In this document: positions 3,340-62,945 of the stretch, in pieces
Layout: each line of letters starts with the position of its first letter
How positions within the stretch are numbered: the stretch's first letter is position 1
Sequence record: ON210137.1
Reading direction: 5' to 3' (one strand)
Length of the DNA: 64,000 bases
From: Escherichia phage EC150
Translations under genes and position numbers: made by a program
Notes under the pieces: generated by a model
Databases searched by the model: none
What the model was told of the DNA's origin: nothing
The model's input: only the letters and a program-made list of their open reading frames with translations

Positions 3340-3849
3340 ATGAAAATCGAACAACTCGAAGCAGTATTGGAAATGGCTGTAAAGGCAGGCGCAATCAGAA
3401 GCTATAGCCGCGAGAAGTCGGATGACGCTGCGCACTTTTGTCGCAACTTCTATATCGTCGGCAACCTTAATGACCACTACACCATCGAGTGGTATACTAA
3501 TATGATGGCTCTTAAGTCGCGCACCATGGAGCTTTGGTGTGATGATGTCTGCTTATCCAACACCCATCCATCCTACGACGTTGCGTTAGCATTCTATTAC
3601 GGAAGCCGTCAACCTGTCGCCCACATCGGTGAGAAGTATGAGCACCTTAAGGCGCGACCAGAGGAATCAATGGACGGTTGGATTTATTGGGCTGGCGTCA
3701 ACAATCCTGTTCCTGGTAAGAAGGTCATGTTTAAATTGCGCTTCGGCTATGAATCTAAATCACCTGCTCTTTCAGATGATTTGAGATGGGAGATTGTTGA
3801 CGATGCTTATGCAACTGACATCATTGCTTATCGAGTCATGGAGGAATAA
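3340..3849 (+). CDS. hypothetical protein with a C-terminal W..G.NPVPGK...AYRV domain
   Basis: 169-aa ORF with GGAG 7 nt upstream. The C-terminal ~58 aa are colinear with the C-terminus of 5004..5429. Confidence 0.6.
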   Translation: MKIEQLEAVLEMAVKAGAIRSYSREKSDDAAHFCRNFYIVGNLNDHYTIEWYTNMMALKSRTMELWCDDVCLSNTHPSYDVALAFYYGSRQPVAHIGEKYEHLKARPEESMDGWIYWAGVNNPVPGKKVMFKLRFGYESKSPALSDDLRWEIVDDAYATDIIAYRVMEE

Positions 3850-4190
3850 TGGAAGAGCAAGAAGGCCGTGAGCTAACGTTCGACGAGCAAATGCAAGAGC
3901 TTCAGCGCACATCGTCGCTGCGCGGTAAGGTTGTTGACATCGAGGCGAGCGAATCCAACCTCACCCAGTGGCGGCTCAAGTGCACCAGCACAAGCAAGGA
4001 TATGTTAAGCTTCAAAGTCGGTCAGACTTATTTGCTTTATGAGGCAAAAGGACTTATTATTGATGGAAGGCAAATTGTCTTCACGGTAGTCAGCGGAATG
4101 CATTGGTTCGTGAAGCGTGATGTCGAGGGCCGTGACATGTTTGTCGCAGGATTTCCAGAAACAAGATTCCAATTGGAGAAGGTTAAATGA
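3849..4190 (+). CDS. hypothetical protein
   Basis: 113-aa ORF with TAATG overlap to the upstream gene. Confidence 0.55.
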   Translation: MEEQEGRELTFDEQMQELQRTSSLRGKVVDIEASESNLTQWRLKCTSTSKDMLSFKVGQTYLLYEAKGLIIDGRQIVFTVVSGMHWFVKRDVEGRDMFVAGFPETRFQLEKVK

Positions 4191-5429: not shown

Positions 5430-5962
5430 TGGGCGGCTTTTGGCGTAAAGCTAAATACTCTAAAGACTTGCATTACTTCTTGGATAATGAAGGCATAAGT
5501 ATATGTGGTAGGTACAGAAGGGATAATGAATCAGCGTCGCAAAGTAATAAGGCTGAATGGTTACTCAAGGAAGAATGCAAAGTTTGCCGCAAACGTTTTT
5601 GTGACAAAACTAGCATAACTGATTACATAAAGGAGCTTAGAAAAAGATGTAAAAGCCCGCAAGAGTTTGCCATAGCTCTTTGGGATGATCACCCTGAGTT
5701 GAGAAGCGAATGGTTAAAGACTGATGCAATCAATTATATCTTCAAATCGAAATACAGGACGACAGCAAGATATAAAATGGATGAAGCAGTAATTCAGAAG
5801 GTATTTTCTTATTGGAGGGATACAGTCGATATTGTGAAAATAAAGAAATACCAAAACGAAGTGCTGCTGGAATTGGAGAGGATTGGCTATAAAGTCACCA
5901 ATAAAATGATAAAAGAAGAAATAAAAAGGAGAACGGAAAAGGGACTGATGCCTAAGATATAG
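5426..5962 (+). CDS. hypothetical protein (AT-rich gene, Cys cluster CKVCRKRFC)
   Basis: 178-codon ORF. Start is GTG 5426 or ATG 5429, after GGAGG. Visibly more AT-rich than its neighbours. Confidence 0.5.
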   Translation: MMGGFWRKAKYSKDLHYFLDNEGISICGRYRRDNESASQSNKAEWLLKEECKVCRKRFCDKTSITDYIKELRKRCKSPQEFAIALWDDHPELRSEWLKTDAINYIFKSKYRTTARYKMDEAVIQKVFSYWRDTVDIVKIKKYQNEVLLELERIGYKVTNKMIKEEIKRRTEKGLMPKI

Positions 5963-6204
5963 TGAATAAACGAACACTGTTTACGTGTTTTGAAGAATGG
6001 AATGTGTGCAATGGGTCGCTTTATGCGGCCTTTTGTCGTTTGGGTCGTGTTTTGCGATGGAATAATTATGATGAGGTGTTTTATTTATTGATTGTGCGGA
6101 AATATTTAGAAATATATTTCATAGGTCGTGTCTATTGGTCCGTGGTGTTTGTTAGATTATATCTATGGATTGAAATTTTAGTGTCGTGAAACGTGGTGTT
6201 TGAA

Positions 6205-6660
6205 CACATTTGATACGCCTAAAATACGGCTAAAAATTAAGCGTATCATGGCTGCAGGCCGCGTCGTTCCTGGATTCTTCTTTTTAAAATTGGTACACCC
6301 TTACGTCATGATACGTCATGGTTTTTTATCCGTATCAGTGTACAGCCCTTGCCGCGCCTGGCTTGTACATTAATCTTACGGATGATACGGATAAAACTGG
6401 GCATCGTTATATATAAAACTCCAAAAATAAATAAACTCCATTTTAAAAACATTTATATTAATTTTTTTCATATCCTCATACTTATGTTAATTTATATATT
6501 TAACGTATCATCCGTAAGATATAAGTAAAAACAAAGACTTGCGGCAATACGGATGATACGTCATGATACGCTTCAACCAGCCAGCAGCGGCTAAGTCATT
6601 GATTTGCATAACAAGCGGCGAAAGGGATGGATTTCTTTTATACGTATCAAACAGTACACC
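6205..6660. repeat. iteron-like GGATGATACG arrays in opposed orientation around a 114-bp AT-rich core (module A)
   Basis: GATACG at 6212, 6310, 6384, 6555, 6565. CGTATC at 6242, 6331, 6504, 6653. Perfect 15-bp inverted repeat at 6375-6389 / 6504-6518. Homologous module at 22190-22460. Confidence 0.7.
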
Positions 6661-6717
6661 ACGCACCACGGTCCGCTATTCATTCAGTACTATGATTTGT
6701 GTACGTTTACAGCCAAT

Positions 6718-6746
6718 TTGAACATCAATCTGCACTTGAATATAAT
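6718..6746 (+). promoter_or_regulatory. sigma70-like promoter upstream of 6799..7272
   Basis: TTGAAC (6718-6723), 17-nt spacer, TATAAT (6741-6746). The two ATTTGCACTAT motifs lie in the predicted leader. Confidence 0.5.
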
Positions 6747-6798
6747 GTTCATTCATTGTATAATTCACACTATTAATTTGCACTATGGGATTTGCACT

Positions 6799-7272
6799 AT
6801 GAGTCAAGATTATGTAGCAATGCCTGAAGACTTTGAAGACCCGCGATTTGCAGAGCATAATCAGGCATTATTCGATGAGTTCATTGACCTTGTTATTCAG
6901 GGCCATGACATGCGCGCAGCTTTTGCACTAGTATTTGGCATGGAGGTTGCGACCGATAACTACACTGGCCAGCGAGTCCTCTGCACGCAACGCAATCCGT
7001 ACTACAAGATGCGCTACAAAAAGCGTATGGAAGAGATGCCATTGAAGGAATTGTGGAGCGTAAAGAGTTCCATCCACAATTTAGTGAAGCTTGTGCGTGA
7101 TCCAGAAGTCGCGGCGTCAGCCAAGCTTAATGCCATTCGTGAACTGAATATCATCTACGGCATCACGATGATTGATGAGAATGGCAATAGTAAAATGGGC
7201 CGTTCCATGGACGATTTCTACAAGGATTTTGGAGAGGCAGCCAAAGAGGGTGAGCAATTCTCCCGCCACTAG
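6799..7272 (+). CDS. putative DNA-binding protein, possibly a terminase small subunit
   Basis: In-frame ATG 6799 (MSQDYVAMPED...). The N-terminal extension from 6604 in the track covers the promoter. The layout (helix-rich N-terminus, then ...AKLNAIRELNIIYG) resembles TerS proteins, but this is a weak by-eye call. Confidence 0.45.
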   Translation: MSQDYVAMPEDFEDPRFAEHNQALFDEFIDLVIQGHDMRAAFALVFGMEVATDNYTGQRVLCTQRNPYYKMRYKKRMEEMPLKELWSVKSSIHNLVKLVRDPEVAASAKLNAIRELNIIYGITMIDENGNSKMGRSMDDFYKDFGEAAKEGEQFSRH

Positions 7273-7284
7273 CCAATTTGCACT

Positions 7285-7325
7285 ATAAAACGGCCCTAGA
7301 ACACATTTTCTCCACTTCTAGGGCC
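7285..7325 (-). terminator. rho-independent terminator for the leftward 8692->7387 operon
   Basis: 10-bp stem GGCCCTAGAA / TTCTAGGGCC (7292-7301 / 7316-7325), followed on the minus strand by GTTTTAT. Confidence 0.55.
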
Positions 7326-7386
7326 ATCGGTAATACGACGGGGAAGGTTACAACCATAAACGCGTTAGAAAGTGTATTATTATAAG

Positions 7387-7650
7387 TCATCTTTTAGTCA
7401 CTTTACGTAACAATTTACGACCTTCCGCCGTCCAGTCGAACGACTCCACCAGCAGATTTGCACTATAACCTAAGACGATGCGCCCTTTCTCGTTATCGAC
7501 CCGCCAACAAGTCTCGAATAGCATTCGATTTGCACTATTAACTATCGCCGCAACGCGCGCTGGGTAAGCGCAATTTGCACTATGGTCGTAAAGGGATAAG
7601 GTGCGACCACTTCCGATGGACAACGTAGCGATGAGAATAAGCGTATTCAT
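7387..7650 (-). CDS. hypothetical protein with signal-peptide-like N-terminus
   Basis: 87-aa ORF with GGTGG 3 nt before the ATG and a minus-strand terminator downstream. It carries three in-frame ATTTGCACTAT copies (read as Ser-Ala-Asn), so coding status is uncertain. Confidence 0.4.
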   Translation of the reverse strand: MNTLILIATLSIGSGRTLSLYDHSANCAYPARVAAIVNSANRMLFETCWRVDNEKGRIVLGYSANLLVESFDWTAEGRKLLRKVTKR

Positions 7651-7700
7651 AAGCCACCAATTTGCACTATGAAAAGCGACCCCGAAGGGCCGCCATTCGA

Positions 7701-8327
7701 TTAGATGATCTGGAATGTGTATGACTTGTTGCCGAACTCGAAGTTCAAGCGCCCAGCTTCCTTAAGCTTCATGCGGAAGCGAATGTGCTTGCTATCCGGT
7801 AATCCCAGCGCGATGAAAGCTACGCGGACCGATTTGAACTCGCCTACACCCTCGACCATAACGCCGTTACGGGTGAGACGCTTTTGCGCCACTTCCTTAT
7901 TATCCCAACTTTTTGCAATGCCTTCGCTATTCGAACGGCGATGGGAAGAAGTTCCATTTTGCACTACGCAATTTGCACTATCGTTTAGGCCGCTCTTAAC
8001 GAAGGCTTCATACTCTTCGTCGGTCATCGCGTCGAGTTCTTCCTGAGTCGGCTCAGACTTTTTAACGACCGCACGCGCCTTATGCGTTTTTACATCGCTG
8101 GGCACTTCCTCGCGCGGCTTCGCGTCGGGAATGGGCGATTCGTTGGACGGCTCATCGAGCGCGTTCAAGGACTCGATTAACGCGATTACGCGAGTCTCGG
8201 CGGTCCGGCGGTCCGCGAACTTTTTAATCGGCTTCGAACCGGAATTTGCGTTGTAAAATGCAACGAGGTCGGCGGTCTTAGTTGCGATAACGTCGCCGCT
8301 AGTCGAGAAGCGATTTAAGCTAACCAT
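7701..8327 (-). CDS. hypothetical protein
   Basis: 208-aa ORF with AGGAG 7 nt upstream. Acidic central linker. Contains motif copies at 7956 and 7971 (..DSANCVVQNG..). Confidence 0.6.
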   Translation of the reverse strand: MVSLNRFSTSGDVIATKTADLVAFYNANSGSKPIKKFADRRTAETRVIALIESLNALDEPSNESPIPDAKPREEVPSDVKTHKARAVVKKSEPTQEELDAMTDEEYEAFVKSGLNDSANCVVQNGTSSHRRSNSEGIAKSWDNKEVAQKRLTRNGVMVEGVGEFKSVRVAFIALGLPDSKHIRFRMKLKEAGRLNFEFGNKSYTFQII

Positions 8328-8407
8328 AATAAACTCCTATTTGTTAGGGCGCTAAGCGCGAAAGAATTTTATTAAAGCGCCGCGCACGACGCTCTTAAAA
8401 TCCTCTC

Positions 8408-8692
8408 TTACGCTTCGACGAGGGAGAAGGTTTCAAATTCTTCTTCGCCCATAACGAGTAAAATATTCCCGATTTCGACCGCTTCGAAGAAGTATCCGTT
8501 AACGTTTACTTCGAAGGCTTCGCGGTCCGATTCCGGTAACGCCGCGTAAAGTTTAAAAGCCTCGGCGACCGTTACCCCACCCGCTTCGATAGTTTGGTCT
8601 ACGTTCGCGGCGTAGACTTCGGATAAATTTTGTTTTACGCCGTAGTTCTCGACGATAGCGTTACGGATAGAAGAAACGTTAAGAATAGCCAT
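8408..8692 (-). CDS. small acidic protein, paralog of 9326..9616
   Basis: 94 aa. Shares S.IR.A.VE ... L..VY..NVD.TIE ... V.(V/I)NG..(F/Y)....EIG with 9326..9616. Has its own promoter and a conserved leader. Confidence 0.65.
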   Translation of the reverse strand: MAILNVSSIRNAIVENYGVKQNLSEVYAANVDQTIEAGGVTVAEAFKLYAALPESDREAFEVNVNGYFFEAVEIGNILLVMGEEEFETFSLVEA

Positions 8693-8760
8693 TTTAAACT
8701 CCTAGTTGGGAGAGGCGTTAACGACCTATTCGTTAACTCATCCCGTCCCGATATGAGTAC

Positions 8761-8788
8761 ATTATAATATAGTGTAGAAAAAAGTAAA
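8761..8788 (-). promoter_or_regulatory. sigma70-like promoter (copy 1 of 3)
   Basis: Minus strand reads GTGCTTTACTTTTTTCTACACTATAT-TATAAT. TTTACT (8788-8783), 16-nt spacer, TATAAT (8766-8761). Confidence 0.5.
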
Positions 8789-8832
8789 GCACTTTTTCGA
8801 TAAAAATGCGATAAATTATTTTATCTTTTTCC

Positions 8833-8860
8833 TTTACTTCTTCGTACACTCGCGTATACT
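8833..8860 (+). promoter_or_regulatory. sigma70-like promoter (copy 2 of 3)
   Basis: TTTACT (8833-8838), spacer TCTTCGTACACTCGCG (16 nt), TATACT (8855-8860). Same TTTACTTCTTCGTACACT core as at 9230. Confidence 0.5.
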
Positions 8861-8915
8861 TGTTTATATCGAGACGGGCGATGGCCTTCCTTCTACTAGC
8901 ATCGGGAGTTTTATT

Positions 8916-9218
8916 ATGACTACTTTAATCTCTTCTATCCTTACTTACGACGAAGACCGTTTAACCGTTCGTTCTCTTATCGCCGCCGTTAACGCGGAAC
9001 TAGAATCCACCATCATTAAGGTCCGCGCGGTCGCTTTCGTCGGCCTTTCCTTCGACGATATTAAGTATGCCGAACGTAGCGCCATCCGCTTCGCGAAGAC
9101 CGACGACGAAGCCGTTACCCTTATCGAGACGGTTACGCCGCGCGGCGAAGCGTTAATTATCGTCGAGTATATCGACGTAGAGGGCGATAAGGCTTATAAA
9201 TATTTTATCGCAAAATAA
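8916..9218 (+). CDS. hypothetical small acidic protein
   Basis: 100-aa ORF with GGGAG 8 nt upstream. CpG-rich codon usage like its neighbours. Confidence 0.6.
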   Translation: MTTLISSILTYDEDRLTVRSLIAAVNAELESTIIKVRAVAFVGLSFDDIKYAERSAIRFAKTDDEAVTLIETVTPRGEALIIVEYIDVEGDKAYKYFIAK

Positions 9219-9229
9219 CGAAAAAGTGC

Positions 9230-9258
9230 TTTACTTCTTCGTACACTAAGACTATAAT
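9230..9258 (+). promoter_or_regulatory. sigma70-like promoter (copy 3 of 3)
   Basis: TTTACT (9230-9235), 17-nt spacer, TATAAT (9253-9258). Preceded by CGAAAAAGTGC, as in the minus-strand copy. Confidence 0.55.
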
Positions 9259-9325
9259 GTTTTATATCGAGAGGGGAGAGGAAGCGAATAGGTCGCCTTC
9301 CCGCCCTCCCAACTAGGAGAATATT

Positions 9326-9616
9326 ATGATTACTTTATCCGCTATCCGTTCCGCTCGCGTCGAGACTTCCGAAAACTCTAACGTATTTGGCGAAACCTTA
9401 GAGAGCGTTTATCTCTCTAACGTCGACGCGACTATCGAATCTATTTATGAGCCGATCAACTTCCTCGACCTTTACAAGTATCGCGACGAGGACATCGTAT
9501 CATCCCGCGTAACTATCAACGGCTTCGTCTATACGATTACCGAAATCGGCGGCGAATATATCGCGGTCCCGCAACTCGGCGGCGAAGTAACTTATTTTAA
9601 AATCGTCTCCTTATAA
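9326..9616 (+). CDS. small acidic protein, paralog of 8408..8692
   Basis: 96 aa. Leader carries the CCCAACTAGGAG RBS context and the AATAGGT-loop hairpin (9280-9301), both shared with the 8408..8692 leader. Confidence 0.65.
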   Translation: MITLSAIRSARVETSENSNVFGETLESVYLSNVDATIESIYEPINFLDLYKYRDEDIVSSRVTINGFVYTITEIGGEYIAVPQLGGEVTYFKIVSL

Positions 9617-9635
9617 TACCCTTCCGTTACTAATA

Positions 9636-9662
9636 GGCCGCGCTTAGTCGCGGCTTTTCTTC
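9636..9662 (+). terminator. rho-independent terminator
   Basis: GCCGCG-CTTAGT-CGCGGC (9637-9654) followed by TTTTCTT. Confidence 0.65.
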
Positions 9663-9780
9663 GTCCCTATCCCGATGCGCGTCTACGCGAAAACTCCTTT
9701 ATCCTTCCCTTCGTCGTCGCATAATCTTCTTCGAGATGCTCCTTAGTTCGCATAACAGGTATTACGTTAAATGGAGAACA

Positions 9781-9854
9781 TCGCGTAAGTCCTTGTTTTA
9801 TATAGACACCTATATCGGACCGTTAGGGCGGGTCGCGTAAGTCGTTGTTTTATA
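9781..9854. repeat. 22-bp direct repeat TCGCGTAAGTC(C/G)TTGTTTTATA
   Basis: Copies at 9781-9802 and 9833-9854 (21/22 identical, 52-bp period) in non-coding DNA. Confidence 0.6.
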
Positions 9855-9979
9855 AAGGCGCAAAACTTTCCCTTCGTTCCGAACTAAAACGAGAAATGTG
9901 CCGACCCTTCGCCCGAAAATAGTACGTATGCGAAATTACATGCATCTCGAATAATCCCTCCCGATATTATCCTACACGC

Positions 9980-10042
9980 AATCATTCGCTTTCGAATCAT
10001 TATGCTTCATATTGTTATGCGTCGAATCATTCGCTTTCGAAT
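9980..10042. repeat. 18-bp direct repeat AATCATTCGCTTTCGAAT
   Basis: Exact copies at 9980-9997 and 10025-10042. Each contains the small inverted repeat ATTCG-N4-CGAAT. Confidence 0.6.
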
Positions 10043-10131
10043 TGTAACGCTGGAAACTGTAACGGCGATTGATTATTGCGTTCGTGTGGTTTTTATGGCA
10101 TGGGTCTTTTGGTGCGTTTTGGTACTTGATG

Positions 10132-10245
10132 AAATTTGCAGTACACTAATCAAAATACGACACATTTGGTCCACTAACTTTTCAAAGAAAAAGTCCTAGA
10201 CAGTACCGTACTATTTTGTACCCACAGGAAATTTGCAGTACACTC
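10132..10245. repeat. direct repeat GAAATTTGCAGTACACT
   Basis: Copies near 10131-10147 and 10229-10245. ATTTGCA is shared with the ATTTGCACTAT motif. Confidence 0.5.
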
Positions 10246-22189: not shown

Positions 22190-22460
22190 AATGACGTATC
22201 ATCCGTATCAAGTAAGTAGTTGTTTTCAAAAGAATCTTACGGATGATACGGATGATACGCGTTGCCGCGATACTTTATAGGAATTCAAATAAATTAATTT
22301 AAAATTATATATCTAATTTAATTTTATTTTTTTATAAACTCTTATATATGAAAAGTATCCGTATCATCCGTATCATCCGTAGCACACCAGTGATAGCGCG
22401 GCTTATACACCGATACGGATAAAAATACGCCTCATTTTATCCGTATCATCCGTATCACAC
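22190..22460. repeat. iteron-like GGATGATACG arrays in opposed orientation around an AT-rich core (module B)
   Basis: CGTATC at 22195, 22204, 22360, 22369, 22442, 22451. GATACG at 22245, 22254, 22412. Inverted repeat CTTACGGATGATACGGATGATACG (22236-22259) / CGTATCATCCGTATCATCCGTAG (22360-22382). AATCTTACGGATGATACGG is identical to 6373-6390. Confidence 0.7.
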
Positions 22461-22516: not shown

Positions 22517-22545
22517 TTGCCTAAGTTTTTTTCATTAGATATAAT
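22517..22545 (+). promoter_or_regulatory. sigma70-like promoter for the head operon
   Basis: TTGCCT (22517-22522), 17-nt spacer, TATAAT (22540-22545). Confidence 0.55.
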
Positions 22546-22574
22546 ACACAATACTTATTTGAGGGTGGATGCGA

Positions 22575-23987
22575 ATGCAAACGGCACGCGAAATTGACAA
22601 AAATGGATTCTTGACGATTGTGGGTTGTCCCATTTCGTCATTTGGCATTTTTGATTATTCTGCAGGTCAGGTTGGACTTGATGGTGATCCGAATCGCATC
22701 GTAAAAGTTTATCGCCCAGAGTCAGCGGTGAAAGACCCCGAAGCGATAGATTCATTCAAAAATATCCCTTTCATCGACAATCACGAAATGCTTTCTGGAT
22801 TCGAAGGTGATGAGGATAACACAGCACCCGAAGAGTATGGCGTTGATGGCGTTCTAACTGGCAATGTTTATTATGACAAGCCATGGATGCGCGGCGACCT
22901 TAAAGTTTTTAGCCGTCGTCTGAAGAAAGCCATCGATTCTGGAAAGGTTGACTTGTCTTTGGGCTATGACTGTGAATTCATCATACAGTCTGGAGAGTTT
23001 GACGGGCAGCCGTATGAAGTGGTACAGACAACTCTTCGCGGCAACCACATTGCTCTCGTGGACGTTGGTCGAGTACCAGGTGCACGGGTGCTGGATGGTC
23101 GTTGCTTTGACCATCTTTGTTTGACGACTGTAACACCATCCAACGAGGATTTAGACATGCCAAAACCGTTAAAAGGTAAAGCGCGTGATAATGCTGTTGA
23201 ACAGCTGAAGTCGCTGATCCCTGCGCTCGAACAATTTCTGAATGAAGAGAGCACCGAAGCTGCTCATCAGGACGAAGTTGAAGTGAAAGCAGAAGAGAAG
23301 GATTCAACCGAAGAACGTGAAGAAGTGATGGTTGATCCAGAAGTCAAAGCAGAAGCTGAAGAGACTCCAGAAGGTGAAGAGAAGTTTGAAGTTGAAACTG
23401 AATCTCACGCTGGCGGCGAGCTTCCGCAACTGATCAGCCAAATCGAAGCACTTATTGCAAAACTGAAAGGTGGCGCGGTAGGTGATGAAGAAGAAGTTGA
23501 AGCCGAAGTCAAAGACGAAGAAGTTGAAGTCAAGGCTGAAGATGTATCACCTTGCGACAAAGCTGAAGATGTGGTTAGCGGCCTGCAAAACAGCAACGTA
23601 AAGGGGGCTTCGGTCGAAAAAGATGACAAACCGACAAAAGCGGCGAAAGCGTCGCCAGGTCCAGCAAAAGGGGAACACTCAATGGCATCTGATTCAGCAG
23701 TTGCTGCTTTCTACGCTGATTCTGCTCGTAAGAATAGCCTCTACCAGCGCCTGTCTAAAGTTGTTGGTGCCTTTGATCATGCAACTATGGACTCCAAGTC
23801 CGTAGCGAAATATGGCGCTAAAAAGTTAGGCTTGAAGTGCGTTGATGGTGCTGAGTTTGACGTGGTGGATAATTATCTGCGCGGCGTTGAACACGGTCAA
23901 AAACAGCGTGTAGTCGCAAAACAAAAGGCTGCTGCGGATTCTGCAGCAACTGACGAAGCGTTTGAAGCTTGGTTGAAAGGGGAATAA
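22575..23987 (+). CDS. putative prohead protease/scaffold protein (DUF2213-like N-terminus, acidic E/K/V-rich centre)
   Basis: ATG 22575 is preferred over 22569 on RBS spacing (GAGG at 22561). The N-terminal ~190 aa recall the DUF2213 phage family. Central EEVEVKAE repeats are scaffold-like. Lies upstream of the capsid gene. Confidence 0.6.
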   Translation: MQTAREIDKNGFLTIVGCPISSFGIFDYSAGQVGLDGDPNRIVKVYRPESAVKDPEAIDSFKNIPFIDNHEMLSGFEGDEDNTAPEEYGVDGVLTGNVYYDKPWMRGDLKVFSRRLKKAIDSGKVDLSLGYDCEFIIQSGEFDGQPYEVVQTTLRGNHIALVDVGRVPGARVLDGRCFDHLCLTTVTPSNEDLDMPKPLKGKARDNAVEQLKSLIPALEQFLNEESTEAAHQDEVEVKAEEKDSTEEREEVMVDPEVKAEAEETPEGEEKFEVETESHAGGELPQLISQIEALIAKLKGGAVGDEEEVEAEVKDEEVEVKAEDVSPCDKAEDVVSGLQNSNVKGASVEKDDKPTKAAKASPGPAKGEHSMASDSAVAAFYADSARKNSLYQRLSKVVGAFDHATMDSKSVAKYGAKKLGLKCVDGAEFDVVDNYLRGVEHGQKQRVVAKQKAAADSAATDEAFEAWLKGE

Positions 23988-58064: not shown

Positions 58065-59060
58065 TTATTTATTAGCAATATAAGCAAATTTTTGATAGTT
58101 ATTTGCTTTGATGAGTTTTTCAACTTCAACAAGGTCATGAGCGACGTCATCAAGCAAAATGTTGCGCCAGGTAGCAAATCGACCGACACTAAACACGTTC
58201 AAATCCATGGTCAGCTGCAGGAGTAGGGCGTGTCGCAAGTCTTTCGGAATGTCGACAATCTTGCCATATTTCTGGTCGACCTTTTCAACTTCTTCAAGAG
58301 CAATGTCACTCCATGAGAGGCCAAAAGCTGTCAACACTTCGTCGACTTCTGCGCGCAGCTTGATGTCACGGTAACGAGTGATGCCGCCAGCGGCTTCAAC
58401 TGCAGCTTCACTCACGCTGACCAAAGGAATTGTTTCAATGATCAGTGTGTCGCCAGTGATTGATGCGCGGTAAGTTCTGACGGAGTAGTCAGGGAAGTAA
58501 ATTGTTTGATACAAATCACACTTACGTTTAATCTTAAAGCGGTAAACGCGAATGTTTGCTTTATCAAATGAGAAATCAAGCTTTTGATCAATCCCAGCCA
58601 GCTTCATCATGACTGGCAGCGGCGACGTGTTGATGATTGGCGTCTCGCTATAGCCGCAAAGAGTATCAACCGGAGTATTAAAGAATATGCGGTCACCCAG
58701 TTTGTCGACAAGCTGATCATAAAAGTCATCAGGCGCAATATAACGTGTTGCAGTCTTAAGCTTCATGATTGAACGGCTGCCAAACTGATTGGTGACCTTC
58801 ATGGAATACATATTGGCAAGGTTGATTGGGCAATGGTCGTGGTAGTAGTTGCCGCGAAAATACACAGCCTTGTCAACTGTCACGGCCTTGAAAGGGATTC
58901 CGGTAATACGGCTTACTTCTTCGCCGCGAAAGCGTAGAAGCGCCTTGTGCTGTTGCGCTCGTTCCCCTGCTTCGTACACAATAGAGTTCGGGAAGTGACA
59001 CGCTGTGATAAGTCCTGCCAGTCCGCCGCCGATAATCATTACAGGTTGTTTCATGTTCAT
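58065..59060 (-). CDS. FAD/NAD(P)-binding oxidoreductase-fold protein (UDP-galactopyranose-mutase/amine-oxidase-like)
   Basis: 331 aa. N-terminal dinucleotide-binding VMIIGGGLAGL (GxGxxG). C-terminal ..SVGRFATWRN..LDD.. resembles the Glf/PPOX-type closing motif. Confidence 0.65.
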   Translation of the reverse strand: MNMKQPVMIIGGGLAGLITACHFPNSIVYEAGERAQQHKALLRFRGEEVSRITGIPFKAVTVDKAVYFRGNYYHDHCPINLANMYSMKVTNQFGSRSIMKLKTATRYIAPDDFYDQLVDKLGDRIFFNTPVDTLCGYSETPIINTSPLPVMMKLAGIDQKLDFSFDKANIRVYRFKIKRKCDLYQTIYFPDYSVRTYRASITGDTLIIETIPLVSVSEAAVEAAGGITRYRDIKLRAEVDEVLTAFGLSWSDIALEEVEKVDQKYGKIVDIPKDLRHALLLQLTMDLNVFSVGRFATWRNILLDDVAHDLVEVEKLIKANNYQKFAYIANK

Positions 59061-59084
59061 TTGTCCTTTGTGGGTGATATGAGA

Positions 59085-59113
59085 AGTATAATAGCTAAAT
59101 TATTTTACAGCAA
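59085..59113 (-). promoter_or_regulatory. sigma70-like promoter
   Basis: Minus strand: TTGCTG (59113-59108), 17-nt spacer, TATACT (59090-59085). Lies upstream of 58065..59060. Confidence 0.45.
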
Positions 59114-59137
59114 CAAGTCATTTTATTTAGTACAGAT

Positions 59138-59166
59138 GAAAAAAGACCCACAACAAGTGTGGGTCA
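59138..59166 (-). terminator. rho-independent terminator
   Basis: Stem GACCCACA/TGTGGGTC (59145-59165), followed on the minus strand by TTTTTTCAT. Confidence 0.6.
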
Positions 59167-59192
59167 ATTACCGCTGCATAACCGTCCTAAGG

Positions 59193-60038
59193 TTATTCCG
59201 CTTGATCACCGTCTTCGGCATCTTCGTTGGATTCAACATCGACAAACTCGATGTGACCCATCTCTTCCAGCTTGCTCAGGTAGGAGCGAACTGAAGCGCC
59301 AAACAGTTGATCTTTAACTTTTTCGCCCAGCTCATCGATAGACTGTGCCACGCCAACTTCGCCTTCTTTGATCGCCGCCAGAACGCGTCCACGGGTGGAA
59401 TGCTCTTGCGGCTGACTCAGGCCATTGCCAGTGTAGATGAAGTGAGTAGCTTTTGCACGACGCTGACCATTGGCCTTTTTGGCAGCCTTACGTTCTGCGA
59501 TGGCTTTGCGACGTTCTTCAGCTTCTTGCTTACGCTGTTCTTTCTGCTGTTCTGCAGCTTCTTTCGCCGCAATCTTAGCAGCTTCACGCTCTGCCTTGCG
59601 TTTCGCTTTGGCTTCTTCTTTGGCCTTCTCTTTTTCGGCCTTCGCTGCAGCACGGGCTTGATCACGCTCTGCTTTCTTAGCAGCAGCTTGTTCAGCTTTC
59701 AGGCGCTTGGCTTCTTCTTTAGCCTTTGCCTTTTCGATTTCTTTCGCTGCTTTAGCGGCTTCACGCTCTGCTTTCTTAGCAGCAGCCTTTTCTGCACGCT
59801 CTTTGGCCTTCTTGGCTGCTTCTTCAGCACGCTTCTGAGCCTTCTCATCAGCAGCCTGCTTGCGTTTCAGGGCAGCTTCTTCACGCTTGGCTTGTTTTTC
59901 CTGCTCACGCTTCTGGCGTTTTTCTTCGGCTTCTTTCTTTTTAGCCAGACGTTTTTCTTCAGCCACGCGACGACGTTCTGCTGCAGCTGCTTGTTTTTCT
60001 TCTTTAGATAATACTTTGATTGCTTCGGCCATGTTCAC
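59193..60038 (-). CDS. K/A/E-rich low-complexity protein with C-terminal winged-helix-like domain
   Basis: 281 aa. About 190 aa are almost pure Lys/Ala/Glu/Arg/Gln (AEEKRLAKKKEAEEKRQKRE...). The C-terminal ~85 aa are globular (..RGRVLAAIKEGEVGVAQSIDELGEKV...VRSYLSKLEEMGHIEF) with an acidic tail. Confidence 0.7.
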   Translation of the reverse strand: MNMAEAIKVLSKEEKQAAAAERRRVAEEKRLAKKKEAEEKRQKREQEKQAKREEAALKRKQAADEKAQKRAEEAAKKAKERAEKAAAKKAEREAAKAAKEIEKAKAKEEAKRLKAEQAAAKKAERDQARAAAKAEKEKAKEEAKAKRKAEREAAKIAAKEAAEQQKEQRKQEAEERRKAIAERKAAKKANGQRRAKATHFIYTGNGLSQPQEHSTRGRVLAAIKEGEVGVAQSIDELGEKVKDQLFGASVRSYLSKLEEMGHIEFVDVESNEDAEDGDQAE

Positions 60039-60191: not shown

Positions 60192-61376
60192 TTAACGCGC
60201 TTTCAAATCACGGTACACGGTCAGATTCTTTTTAGCGCGGGTAATAGCGGTGTACATCATCTTTGCATACGGAACGCCGCGCAGGATTTCTTCCAACACG
60301 CACACATTGTCCCACTCGCTGCCTTGCGATTTGTGCACCGTTATGACATAGCCATAGTCCATGCCTCCAACGGCTCGTTGGGCCTCTTTGCGCACTTCCT
60401 GATCAGTAGAGAAGGAAAGAGGATTTATCTTCACCTTTATATCTTTGCCATCGGTAAGCGAGCGCAAGTTGACATACATGATTTCATTAGACTCGTCTTC
60501 ATCCCTTTCAAAGTCCGGCACTGGCTCATAACTAATAACAATCCCTTGCTCGCCATTACAGAATCCTGGACCGTGTTGGTTGAATGTGCAAATAACTTTC
60601 TCTCCGATTCCTGGCATCGGCGTTATACGTCCGCTCACTTGCCGCAATAATGAATTCCATTTATCTTTGGTGCTATTATATGAGCAAATAATTTGATCAT
60701 CTTCGCCCATGAATTTCTTCAACGCAGTAACGCGCGGCGATTCAGCCAACACCTTGACATCATCGTATTCACGCGGAGGAAGTCGGTTGCCCTGTCGCAC
60801 GAAGAAGGAAGCGCGGATGATGTTGGACTCTTTCCCTTGCCGCATGATTTCGGTTAACAGTACGTCAACGGCATCTTCAGTAAAGTAGGCGGCGGCTTTT
60901 ACCGGAGGGACTTGTCCAATGTCGCCTAATGCCAGAACAGGGATGCGGTGATCAAGAAGGCGCTCTGCGTCCCACTCGCCAACCATTGAAGCTTCATCAA
61001 GGACGACAAGATGCGGCCTTTCATCAAGCGTTGACTTCCTTGCAAAGATTGGTTCATTGTCATCGTTAACGCCGCGCACGTTATAGATGAACTGGTGAAG
61101 GGTCTTAGCGCCACGACACCCTTTCTGCTTCAATCGGCTGGCGGCCTTTCCGGTCGGCGCAATATAAATGGCACCGTACTCACCGACACAACGGCGCACA
61201 ATCTCACGCGCAATAGAGGTTTTACCTGTTCCTGCATAGCCAGCGATGAAAAACACGCGCTTCGTTGTTTTGCCGTCCTGCAATCGCTTGTACCATGCAA
61301 CGGCCTTTTCGATGGCGTCAATCTGTTGCGCGTTAAACTGAATCACTGGCTCATCATTAAATTCTGGAATGTTCAT
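60192..61376 (-). CDS. RecD/Dda-like SF1 DNA helicase
   Basis: 394 aa. Walker A GYAGTGKTS, Walker B VVLDEASMV, C-terminal ..ITVHKSQGSEWDNVCVL.. and ..YTAITRAK... Confidence 0.85.
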   Translation of the reverse strand: MNIPEFNDEPVIQFNAQQIDAIEKAVAWYKRLQDGKTTKRVFFIAGYAGTGKTSIAREIVRRCVGEYGAIYIAPTGKAASRLKQKGCRGAKTLHQFIYNVRGVNDDNEPIFARKSTLDERPHLVVLDEASMVGEWDAERLLDHRIPVLALGDIGQVPPVKAAAYFTEDAVDVLLTEIMRQGKESNIIRASFFVRQGNRLPPREYDDVKVLAESPRVTALKKFMGEDDQIICSYNSTKDKWNSLLRQVSGRITPMPGIGEKVICTFNQHGPGFCNGEQGIVISYEPVPDFERDEDESNEIMYVNLRSLTDGKDIKVKINPLSFSTDQEVRKEAQRAVGGMDYGYVITVHKSQGSEWDNVCVLEEILRGVPYAKMMYTAITRAKKNLTVYRDLKAR

Positions 61377-61862: not shown

Positions 61863-62945
61863 ATGGCTAGTTTAAGAGAAGAAGCAAAAATAATCGAAGA
61901 GTTTTTGACAGAACTCCAAAGAGGCATTCCAGAAGATGAACGCGTCATGACCGTGTTTGCGCCTGAAGCAACGGTGCAGACCGACGAGCGCGGCAAAAAG
62001 ATTAACAGCAGCTTCTGGCCTAAGCCTTGGAAGCTTGGCAAGCCGCTGATGCAACATCAGAACGGTTACGCCTGCATAAGTTCAATGCGTAAGTCTCCCA
62101 ACCCAAAGACAGGCGAGATGCGATACTGGCGCACGGAATCGGCTTTCGGTCATGGCATGGCGATGATGGTCGACGACATCGGTCACGGTAAAGGGTCCAA
62201 AGGCGATTTAGATTTAGAGTTCTTTTTCGAGCGTCTGAAGCCAACCGTCATTGTTGAGACTTCACCGAACAACCACCAGCTGTGGTATTTCTTTAAAGAC
62301 CCGATTGACCATCTTATCCAGTTCAAAGCATTCCTTGGGTCTTTCGTAAACATGGTACTCAAGAAGGGCGGCGACAACACGATTAAAGACGTGACGCGCG
62401 TGGGCCGTGTTCCTGGTTGCATCAACAACAAGCGTGTGACTCACGACGGCCCTTACAAATATGTCGATGAGAACGGCGACCCGTTCCGCTGCCGACTTGT
62501 CCATGCAGACTATTCTTTGCGATACACAATCGAAGAGATTTGCCAAGCCTTCGGTTTCCACGTCGTTATGCCGCAAAAGCGTGAAATTCAAATTGACGTT
62601 GACGAATACAAATATGATGCTGTTTGGTATAAAATAGCCCAGCAAATCCTTTCGCGCAATAAGATGGGTGAAGGGTCCGATGGCGATGTTGTTGAAAACA
62701 TGTCAGGTAAATGCCGCATCATCTGCCCTTGGGGTGAAGAGCACACCAACGGCGACCCATATGGCGCTTACTTTCGCGGCCCAATCCCTGGCGCTGAACA
62801 TGAATTCGTTTTCGGTTGCGCTCACGACTGTCACCGGAAAGGTGAAGGTAAGAAAGGCTGGACAGCTTTTGTTGAAGCAGTAGTCATGCCTTATATTGAG
62901 AATCAACTTGATATGATAAATCGTCGCGCAGGTGGCATAAAATAG
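61863..62945 (+). CDS. primase-polymerase (AEP/RepB'-like) with C-terminal Cys/His cluster
   Basis: 360 aa. ..MAMMVDDIG.. (DxD), ..ETSPNNHQLWYFF.. (SxH), ..RVGRVPGCINNK... C-terminal CRIICPWGEEHTNGD....GCAHDCH looks like a zinc motif. Confidence 0.75.
   Translation: MASLREEAKIIEEFLTELQRGIPEDERVMTVFAPEATVQTDERGKKINSSFWPKPWKLGKPLMQHQNGYACISSMRKSPNPKTGEMRYWRTESAFGHGMAMMVDDIGHGKGSKGDLDLEFFFERLKPTVIVETSPNNHQLWYFFKDPIDHLIQFKAFLGSFVNMVLKKGGDNTIKDVTRVGRVPGCINNKRVTHDGPYKYVDENGDPFRCRLVHADYSLRYTIEEICQAFGFHVVMPQKREIQIDVDEYKYDAVWYKIAQQILSRNKMGEGSDGDVVENMSGKCRIICPWGEEHTNGDPYGAYFRGPIPGAEHEFVFGCAHDCHRKGEGKKGWTAFVEAVVMPYIENQLDMINRRAGGIK

Follow-up and report, generated by a model that had tools for sequence, protein, structure and literature searches.

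The phage P1 pac site has hexanucleotide repeats flanking the cut and an IHF site; the repeats carry GATC, which brings Dam methylation control, and the genome has a single pac. In phage lambda, cos is organized as cosQ-cosN-cosB, with the R sites for gpNu1 on one side only, 12-nt cohesive ends and no terminal repeat. Herpes simplex virus contains an internal copy of its 'a' sequence, which is inverted and cleavable in isomers. Iterons are also found at replication origins with two cis sites, such as the homologous oriL and oriR of SPP1 and the ori and crr of P4, as well as in the oriV of RSF1010, in which a RepB'-type primase primes at paired inverted sites. How small terminases recognize viral DNA is still disputed, and a 'twin pac' synapsis model was put forward for T4 gp16, involving 24-bp homologies inside genes 16 and 19 (PMC9611059). 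The small terminase (TerS) of Pseudomonas phage E217 is a decamer encoded approximately 58 kb from TerL that showed no appreciable DNA binding in vitro, and TerS proteins of this type are without a known cognate site (PMC9611059). Among the Pbunavirus phages, the start of the Ab27 record was set from fixed read termination (PMC4482731), and a putative pac site was assigned to position 59,376 of JG024, where 36 of 161 long reads start and for which a pac restriction fragment was seen (PMC10913387). Wifcevirus was described as distantly related to Pbunavirus, WFC and WFH having terminal repeats of approximately 3.7 kb (PMC6563267), and the literature describing this genus states nothing about its cis elements. 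End coordinates are thus already known from GenBank and genome announcements, and the pac coordinate of JG024 is published; the Pbunavirus work gives this coordinate without the anatomy of the site. The publications that we searched on Wifcevirus, vB_Eco4M-7, Ro157lw and the Pbunavirus transcriptome mention neither repeats nor an origin nor pac anatomy, and we found in the searched literature no description of the iteron anatomy reported below, of its family-wide conservation with lineage-specific repeats or of its uncut twin.

The window analyzed here is a stretch of 64,000 nucleotides from Escherichia phage EC150 (ON210137.1); approximately 4 kb of the genome lie outside it. Its region 5900-6900 matched 28 phage records at 90-97% identity, all Wifcevirus (Lindbergviridae), which identifies the phage as an E. 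coli myovirus of this genus. These records correspond to E. coli and Shigella myoviruses with approximately 68 kb of unique sequence, and include WFC, WFH, ECML-117, FEC19, Mansfield and Bas98-101. An initial annotation had reported that 5963-6798 holds no convincing gene, and indeed no ORF in this interval has a Pfam or PHROG match, with annotations that vary among related records. The small ORF 6563-6721 gave no Pfam match, and a Rfam scan of the whole window returned no family above threshold. The intergenic element that we named Module A comprises the following features:

6136..6674, no strand: Module A as a whole, with nested imperfect dyad symmetry about the cut site (inverted-repeat search)
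6208..6389, no strand: left (unique-region) iteron array, GATACG cores at 6212+, 6242-, 6310+, 6331- and 6384+
6390..6503, no strand: AT-rich core, 114 bp, 18.4% GC
6504..6652, no strand: right (terminal-repeat side) iteron array, 6504- (CGTATCATCCGTAAG), 6551+, 6561+ (TCATGATACG) and 6643-
6380+, 6504-, 6551+: exact GGATGATACG sites of Module A

The iteron GGATGATACG was found in 10 exact copies in 64 kb, where approximately 0.12 were expected, and these copies were confined to three places, namely Module A (6205-6660), a second module at 22190-22460 (Module B) and a lone position, 9496. With one mismatch or less, there were 12 matches against a shuffle mean of 2.74, and 0 of 100 shuffles reached 12. 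The motif is localized and not spread at uniform density over the 64 kb. The lone exact copy (9496-9505, minus strand) lies within an ORF (approximately 9328-9615, plus strand) inside the terminal repeat, distant from both modules. The shorter core GATACG/CGTATC is present in 35 copies in the window, 9 of them in 6212-6648 and 9 in 22195-22456. The core sites listed previously for Module A were recovered at 6212, 6310, 6384, 6555 and 6565 on the plus strand and at 6242, 6331 and 6504 on the minus strand, while the one placed at 6653 actually lies at 6643. We also confirmed that a 15-bp inverted repeat (6375-6389 and 6504-6518) brackets the core; it is perfect, with 114 nt between the arms, and reaches 27 nt when extended at 85% complementarity. 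The innermost left iteron, CTTACGGATGATACG (6375-6389), points toward the core, and the GT-rich CGTGGTG motifs left of the core have ACACCACG as their mirror image on the other side. When the 100-bp windows of the 64 kb are ranked by AT content, the first two places are taken by the cores of Modules A and B. A scan of both modules for the IHF consensus gave a single exact match, at 6592 (minus strand), and neither module contained an exact DnaA box.

The flanks of the module are strand-asymmetric, being GT-rich on the unique side (GGTCGTG/CGTGGTG, 6030-6200) and CA-rich on the repeat side (ACACCACG, 6656-6674). The same GT-left/CA-right pattern was seen in an IMG/VR lineage, L037 (760-830 and 1270-1330), and long CA-rich tracts flank the modules of Serratia phage MyoSmar (3740-3890) and Pbunavirus (1290-1440 of the examined locus). 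The hexamer CGCGGC/GCCGCG, seen in the modules of several genera, was considered as a module motif and rejected. It occurs 101 times against approximately 31 expected, a roughly threefold excess across the whole window, and is therefore not specific to the modules.

We compared the starts of related records with Module A. Five of them (WFC, WFH, Mansfield, Ro157lw and SP13) begin at the nucleotide homologous to 6440, with first bases ATTTT(A/G)AA directly after a conserved AACTCC. The Mansfield record was opened at the terminal-repeat boundary given by PhageTerm (PMC6753283). The alignment of these first bases, which by homology represent the mature virion end expected at a terminase site, places the predicted left end of the virion DNA between 6439 and 6440, within the AT-rich core. 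This position is 50 nt past the left arm and 64 nt before the right arm, approximately 7 bp off the dyad centre. The corresponding features are:

6434..6445, plus strand: predicted cleavage point AACTCC/ATTTTA (slash, cut), the first base of the virion DNA and of the terminal repeat being 6440, by homology
6440..10190, plus strand: direct terminal repeat, placed by homology, its left end sharp at 6440
10109/10110 (Mansfield-type, 3673 bp) or 10190/10191 (WFC-type, 3784 bp): right end of the terminal repeat, by homology

The duplication was verified in the WFC record, which is identical at both ends over 3,784 bp starting at the homologue of 6440, so that the sequence to the right of this nucleotide is repeated at the opposite end of the genome. 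Terminal repeats determined with PhageTerm are also annotated in the Mansfield and MyoSmar records, and the inferred repeat lengths of other phages are approximately 3.7 kb (WFH), 3.5 kb (Ro157lw) and 3.9 kb (SP13), with total packaged lengths of 71.3-72.5 kb. The right boundaries of Mansfield and WFC do not coincide by homology; projected on the window they differ by 81 bp, in near-identical local sequence. The right end of the repeat may thus be imprecise or headful-like instead of defined by sequence. A sixfold CCCACGA tandem is located just past the right end of the repeat in Mansfield (3840-3885). The PS44 record (68,871 bp, two terS matches) was considered as another terminal-repeat record and discarded, its right end not repeating its left end.

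Conservation of Module A was analyzed in eight Wifcevirus genomes. Left of approximately 6373, these genomes carry three unrelated sequences; despite this, an inward-facing TACGGATGATACGGAT(GATACG) is found immediately left of the core in all eight. The AACTCC/ATTTT junction is likewise kept in 8/8, as are the repeat-side iterons ATACGGATGATACGTCATGATACG and TATACGTATCAAAC, with Bas101 and kaset differing by single bases. Only EC150, Bas100 and SP13 have a perfect inverted repeat, most relatives having 1-2 mismatches in the right arm, and the right arm adjoining the core is degenerate in most of the eight genomes (CGTATTATCCGTAAG). The GATACG cores and the AACTCC junction persist even in a relative with a TerS of only 69% identity. 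The conservation that the initial annotation had called for is therefore seen among Wifcevirus relatives for both the GATACG cores and the junction. As for the left flanks, homology to about half of the Wifcevirus records ends exactly at the left inverted-repeat arm, at a mosaic breakpoint near 6373, and the three flank groups consist of EC150, WFC and Bas100; Mansfield, ECML-117, Bas101 and kaset; and Bas99.

Comparable elements with other repeats were found beyond Wifcevirus. In phage MyoSmar, a module with a different iteron (TACTTTTCGTTTT / ACGAAAAGTA) precedes the head protease gene, and a second copy lies at 3466-3710 of the record. The PhageTerm repeat boundary (3559) falls within this second copy and, read in the orientation of the structural genes, corresponds to the point at which the unique region gives way to the repeat; the gene that follows belongs to PHROG 4783, as does the Wifcevirus TerS. 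The Pbunavirus region upstream of terS contains CCGGTAATT iterons and inverted GCCTCGCGGCA arms of approximately 20 bp around an AT-rich core. The start of the Ab27 record and position 59,376 of JG024 coincide to the nucleotide, on the left margin of this AT core, and the iteron module lies approximately 600 bp upstream of terS. The intergenic region upstream of the Ab27 protease gene is clearly paralogous to the terS-upstream module. In two further lineages from IMG/VR, terS is preceded by opposed iterons that differ again, TATCCGATAA in one and GGTTAGTTAG/CTAACC in the other. Opposed TTAGTTACT/AGTAACTAA iterons were also observed upstream of the protease gene of Burkholderia phage Karil-Mokiny-1 (2100-2400), and no repeat array was evident on reading the intergenic region upstream of the protease gene of Xanthomonas phage Carpasina (2130-2500).

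The DNA end maps in the core of this element in three genera (Wifcevirus, that of MyoSmar, and Pbunavirus). Packaging outcomes differ among them, Wifcevirus and MyoSmar having a fixed terminal repeat and Pbunavirus packaging by the headful mechanism, and packaging initiation is their common denominator. Considering this together with the record starts at 6440, the adjoining terS and the Pbunavirus pac end, we read Module A as a packaging-initiation region of the pac/cos type and the left boundary of the direct terminal repeat of approximately 3.7 kb, with a probability of roughly 0.65. A packaging site had been listed as one alternative in the initial annotation and is now the best-supported reading. 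The iterons would serve as recognition elements and the AT-rich core as the cleavage region. One sequence-specific phage protein would bind the iterons on both sides, and binding on either flank of an easily deformed AT core would position the large terminase to cut there. The DNA would then be translocated rightwards, the terS side entering first.

The features that bear on the identity of the binding protein are the following:

6799..7272, plus strand: small terminase (TerS) gene, 157 aa, PHROG 4783, annotated as TerS in Mansfield
6776..7981, all copies on the plus strand: second repeat family (A)ATTTGCACTA(T), 10 copies in the first 1.5 kb of the terminal repeat

The terS gene starts 360 bp to the right of 6440. 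A Pfam search with its product gave no match and PHROGs returned only a family of 'unknown function', and a single-sequence AlphaFold2 model was unusable (pLDDT 44.5). A profile built from eight TerS homologues matched the PDB entry 7uxe_A, 'Small terminase' (E=1.7e-48, residues 4-150), which we take to be the decameric TerS of Pseudomonas phage E217, a Pbunavirus. The same gene order, with terS adjoining the module as expected of a terminase site, was found in MyoSmar, Pbunavirus and the two IMG/VR lineages. Adjacency to terS thus holds in every lineage examined, and adjacency to replication genes is not so conserved. Because its gene adjoins the module throughout, because it forms rings and because the iterons are 9-bp tandem units, TerS is the most economical candidate binder, and the iterons are probably the recognition sites at which it would act. 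In a TerS ring, neighboring subunits could each engage one of the tandem 9-bp units.

Two observations weigh against this assignment, namely the lack of appreciable DNA binding by E217 TerS in vitro (PMC9611059) and the unidirectional ATTTGCACTA repeats, which could be the real TerS signal. These repeats are on the plus strand irrespective of the strand of the genes, two of them overlap the start codon region of terS, and the family is essentially absent elsewhere in the 64 kb. Copies of a variant, ATTTGCAGTACAC (AAATTTGCAGTACAC), are found at 10135-10143 and 10232-10240, beside the right end of the terminal repeat. The ATTTGCACTA family is conserved in Mansfield, WFC, Bas100 and the relative from Logan whose TerS is 69% identical, and it is possible that the array is an alternative or additional packaging signal. 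Module A could be the packaging site with GGATGATACG read by a protein other than TerS, of an architectural or regulatory and lineage-specific nature, and with TerS reading the ATTTGCACTA array, which begins at the terS gene itself. An array in one orientation fits a process that is itself directional, the 10 same-strand copies lie in the first 1.5 kb to be packaged, with two variants at the right end of the repeat, and a similar ATTGCAACTA cluster precedes terS in the distant lineage L037; the poor DNA binding reported for E217 TerS (PMC9611059) points the same way. We nevertheless find this alternative doubtful, since neither MyoSmar nor Ab27 showed a comparable unidirectional array in its terminal regions by 9-mer counting, all lineages examined have opposed iterons around the cut, and no candidate was found for the other binding protein.

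The second module lies upstream of the head protease gene:

22190..22460, no strand: Module B, paralogous module, iterons at 22195-, 22204-, 22241+ and 22250+ on one side and at 22360-, 22369-, 22412+, 22442- and 22451- on the other
22195-, 22241+, 22250+, 22360-, 22369-, 22442-: exact GGATGATACG sites of Module B
22569-23987: head maturation protease gene, downstream of Module B

Its core (22260-22359) is 100 bp long with 18% GC. The AACTCC cut-site motif is absent from Module B, and no DNA end has been reported there. From its left arm through the protease promoter, the module is nearly invariant in five Wifcevirus genomes. Bas101 has one 9-bp GATGATACG unit fewer (compared with 22239-22259 of the window), which represents a variation in the copy number of tandem iterons. 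Module B had been presented as a homologous second copy of Module A, and this stands for the iteron arms and the layout. The two AT cores align no better than shuffled sequence, therefore the homology concerns arms and layout and not the core. The Mansfield-type left arm of Module A (CTTACGGATGATACGGATGATACGCGTCGCCGCTATACTTTATA, 6040-6090) is identical at 44 of 49 positions to the left arm of Module B (22235-22285 of the window), which suggests exchange, gene conversion or recombination between the modules.

We also counted the 9-mers common to the regions upstream of terS and upstream of the protease gene. There were 33-44 within a genome, and 11 in one contig in which the upstream region was cut short. 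Between unrelated lineages, the number of common 9-mers was 2-14, and it reached up to 32 between MyoSmar and its close relative. From these counts, the two modules co-vary in four lineages. The pair is found in four divergent lineages, and in each of them both modules carry the same iteron, one particular to that lineage; such co-variation implies a single lineage-specific DNA-binding protein for both. Module B would then be a paralogue read by the same protein as Module A, and it could control the head-protease/capsid operon, pair with Module A in synapsis, or act as a replication origin.

A packaging role of Module A would not on its own account for the uncut twin that four lineages have retained upstream of the head protease. 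A more elaborate proposal would be a two-site system common to Lindbergviridae, in which one lineage-specific protein, either TerS or a factor coupling replication and packaging, recognizes both the cut terminal module and the uncut internal twin, and in which bridging or co-occupancy licenses packaging or couples it to head-protein expression or to an origin. The iteron pair would in that case be the long-missing cognate DNA of the decameric, E217-type TerS. We put this forward tentatively, with the odds well against the proposal as a whole.

Iterons beside an AT-rich core are equally a hallmark of origins, and a replication origin was the reading initially emphasized for this locus. An initiator would bind the iterons, the AT core would melt and replication would start at Module A, Module B or both; the end of the terminal repeat would coincide with the origin, which could possibly serve the duplication of the repeat as well. 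The anatomy on which this reading was built, opposed repeats around an AT-rich core and a second copy, has stood. Module A has 9 GATACG cores in 456 bp, a figure that describes repeats only, with initiator binding putative, and its 114-bp core with 18.4% GC resembles an AT-rich origin element by a measure of composition only. The two modules also contain the most AT-rich 100-bp windows of the 64 kb, and two copies per genome with co-varying iterons are found in four lineages. The terS-upstream module directly follows a VirE-like primase-helicase gene in Pbunavirus, MyoSmar and TropicalSun, and the phage encodes a RepB'-type primase (61863-62945, plus strand; PF16793, E=4e-36). Direct support for an origin was not obtained, however. 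Neither an adjacent initiator gene nor host DnaA boxes nor a skew inflection of its own was found at Module A, the inflections of GC and AT skew only tracking gene orientation. In Wifcevirus, approximately 8 kb of small genes separate Module A from the VirE-like gene, which is upstream and outside the window. Moreover, what has been mapped in the core, for three genera, is an end of virion DNA, and the headful Pbunavirus phages need no repeat duplication yet retain the module as their pac site. In the searchable literature, we found no mapped origin for this family. Hence, we regard an origin at these modules as unlikely in place of a packaging site, while origin function, particularly for Module B, is possible alongside a packaging role, with which it is compatible.

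Among the replication genes, we observed an SF1 helicase gene (60192-61376, minus strand) in addition to the RepB'-type primase gene (61863-62945, plus strand). Mansfield_082, a 556-aa ORF (58285-59955 in Mansfield, outside the window), is probably a homologue of the VirE-like primase-helicase. This helicase was considered as the iteron binder from its adjacency and was rejected, as the adjacency holds in Pbunavirus and MyoSmar and not in Wifcevirus. An IncQ-like priming system in a 68-kb myovirus may bear on the position at which replication starts.

A consensus scan revealed sigma-70-type promoter matches near both modules:

6718..6764, plus strand: two overlapping near-consensus matches (TTGAAC-17-TATAAT and TTGAAT-17-TATAAT), upstream of terS
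22517..22545, plus strand: one match (TTGCCT-17-TATAAT), between Module B and the protease gene

That the modules are enhancer or operator regions of two late operons, at which an iteron-bound phage regulator activates or represses the promoters of terS and of the head protease and capsid genes, seems very unlikely: each module does end 60-75 bp upstream of a 10/12 match (6718-6746 and 22517-22545) and the stretch between Module B and its promoter hardly varies among Wifceviruses, but these matches come from consensus scans only, the Pbunavirus module is separated from terS by approximately 500 bp with a long CA-rich spacer, there are just two modules for several late operons, and the DNA end within the core is left unexplained.

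With packaging initiation as the preferred reading of Module A, the iteron modules offer a concrete and testable DNA partner for the E217-type TerS family in phages of E. coli, Serratia and Pseudomonas, among them therapeutic phages of the genus Pbunavirus. For rebooting or engineering these 68-kb genomes, it is important to know the precise end and the surrounding cis elements. The conserved, co-varying and uncut twin points to an unexplained link of packaging with the head operon or with replication. If Module A is only a pac site with flanking repeats, the result is a useful annotation and no surprise.

Compared with the described systems, Module A resembles the pac site of Bacillus phage SPP1 (pacL-pacC-pacR, bound by the TerS G1P), in which short repeated boxes also flank the cleavage region, the site is at or next to terS, and packaging proceeds into terS. 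SPP1 differs in being a headful packager with unlike boxes in pacL and pacR, whereas here a single iteron is found in inverted arrays together with a fixed terminal repeat. To our knowledge, no uncut twin of the SPP1 pac is known. The P1 pac similarly has clusters of short repeats on either side of a central cleavage region and a bendable or IHF-type element nearby, which would correspond here to the match at 6592. The Wifcevirus iteron is without GATC, however, and P1 has one pac site. Lambda cos has in common with this locus a dyad-symmetric nicking site, small-terminase repeats beside it and terminase genes immediately downstream, and differs by its cohesive ends, its one-sided R sites and its lack of a terminal repeat. 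The T4 twin pac and the herpes simplex virus 'a' sequence are earlier examples of genomes in which a packaging signal has an additional, internal copy, although the twin described here is intergenic, upstream of the head protease, and has no reported end. Origins with iterons share the repeats beside an AT-rich stretch, two related sites per genome, and the phage-encoded RepB'-type primase with a VirE-like helicase; they differ in that the mapped feature here is a packaging end and initiator binding is putative. The Pbunavirus pac (59,376 in JG024, the start of Ab27) has an iteron of its own (CCGGTAATT) with GCCTCGCGGCA arms of approximately 20 bp, in genomes reported as headful, permuted and without a fixed repeat, but it is a homologous element, upstream of an orthologous terS, with a DNA end at the core and a paralogue upstream of the protease gene.
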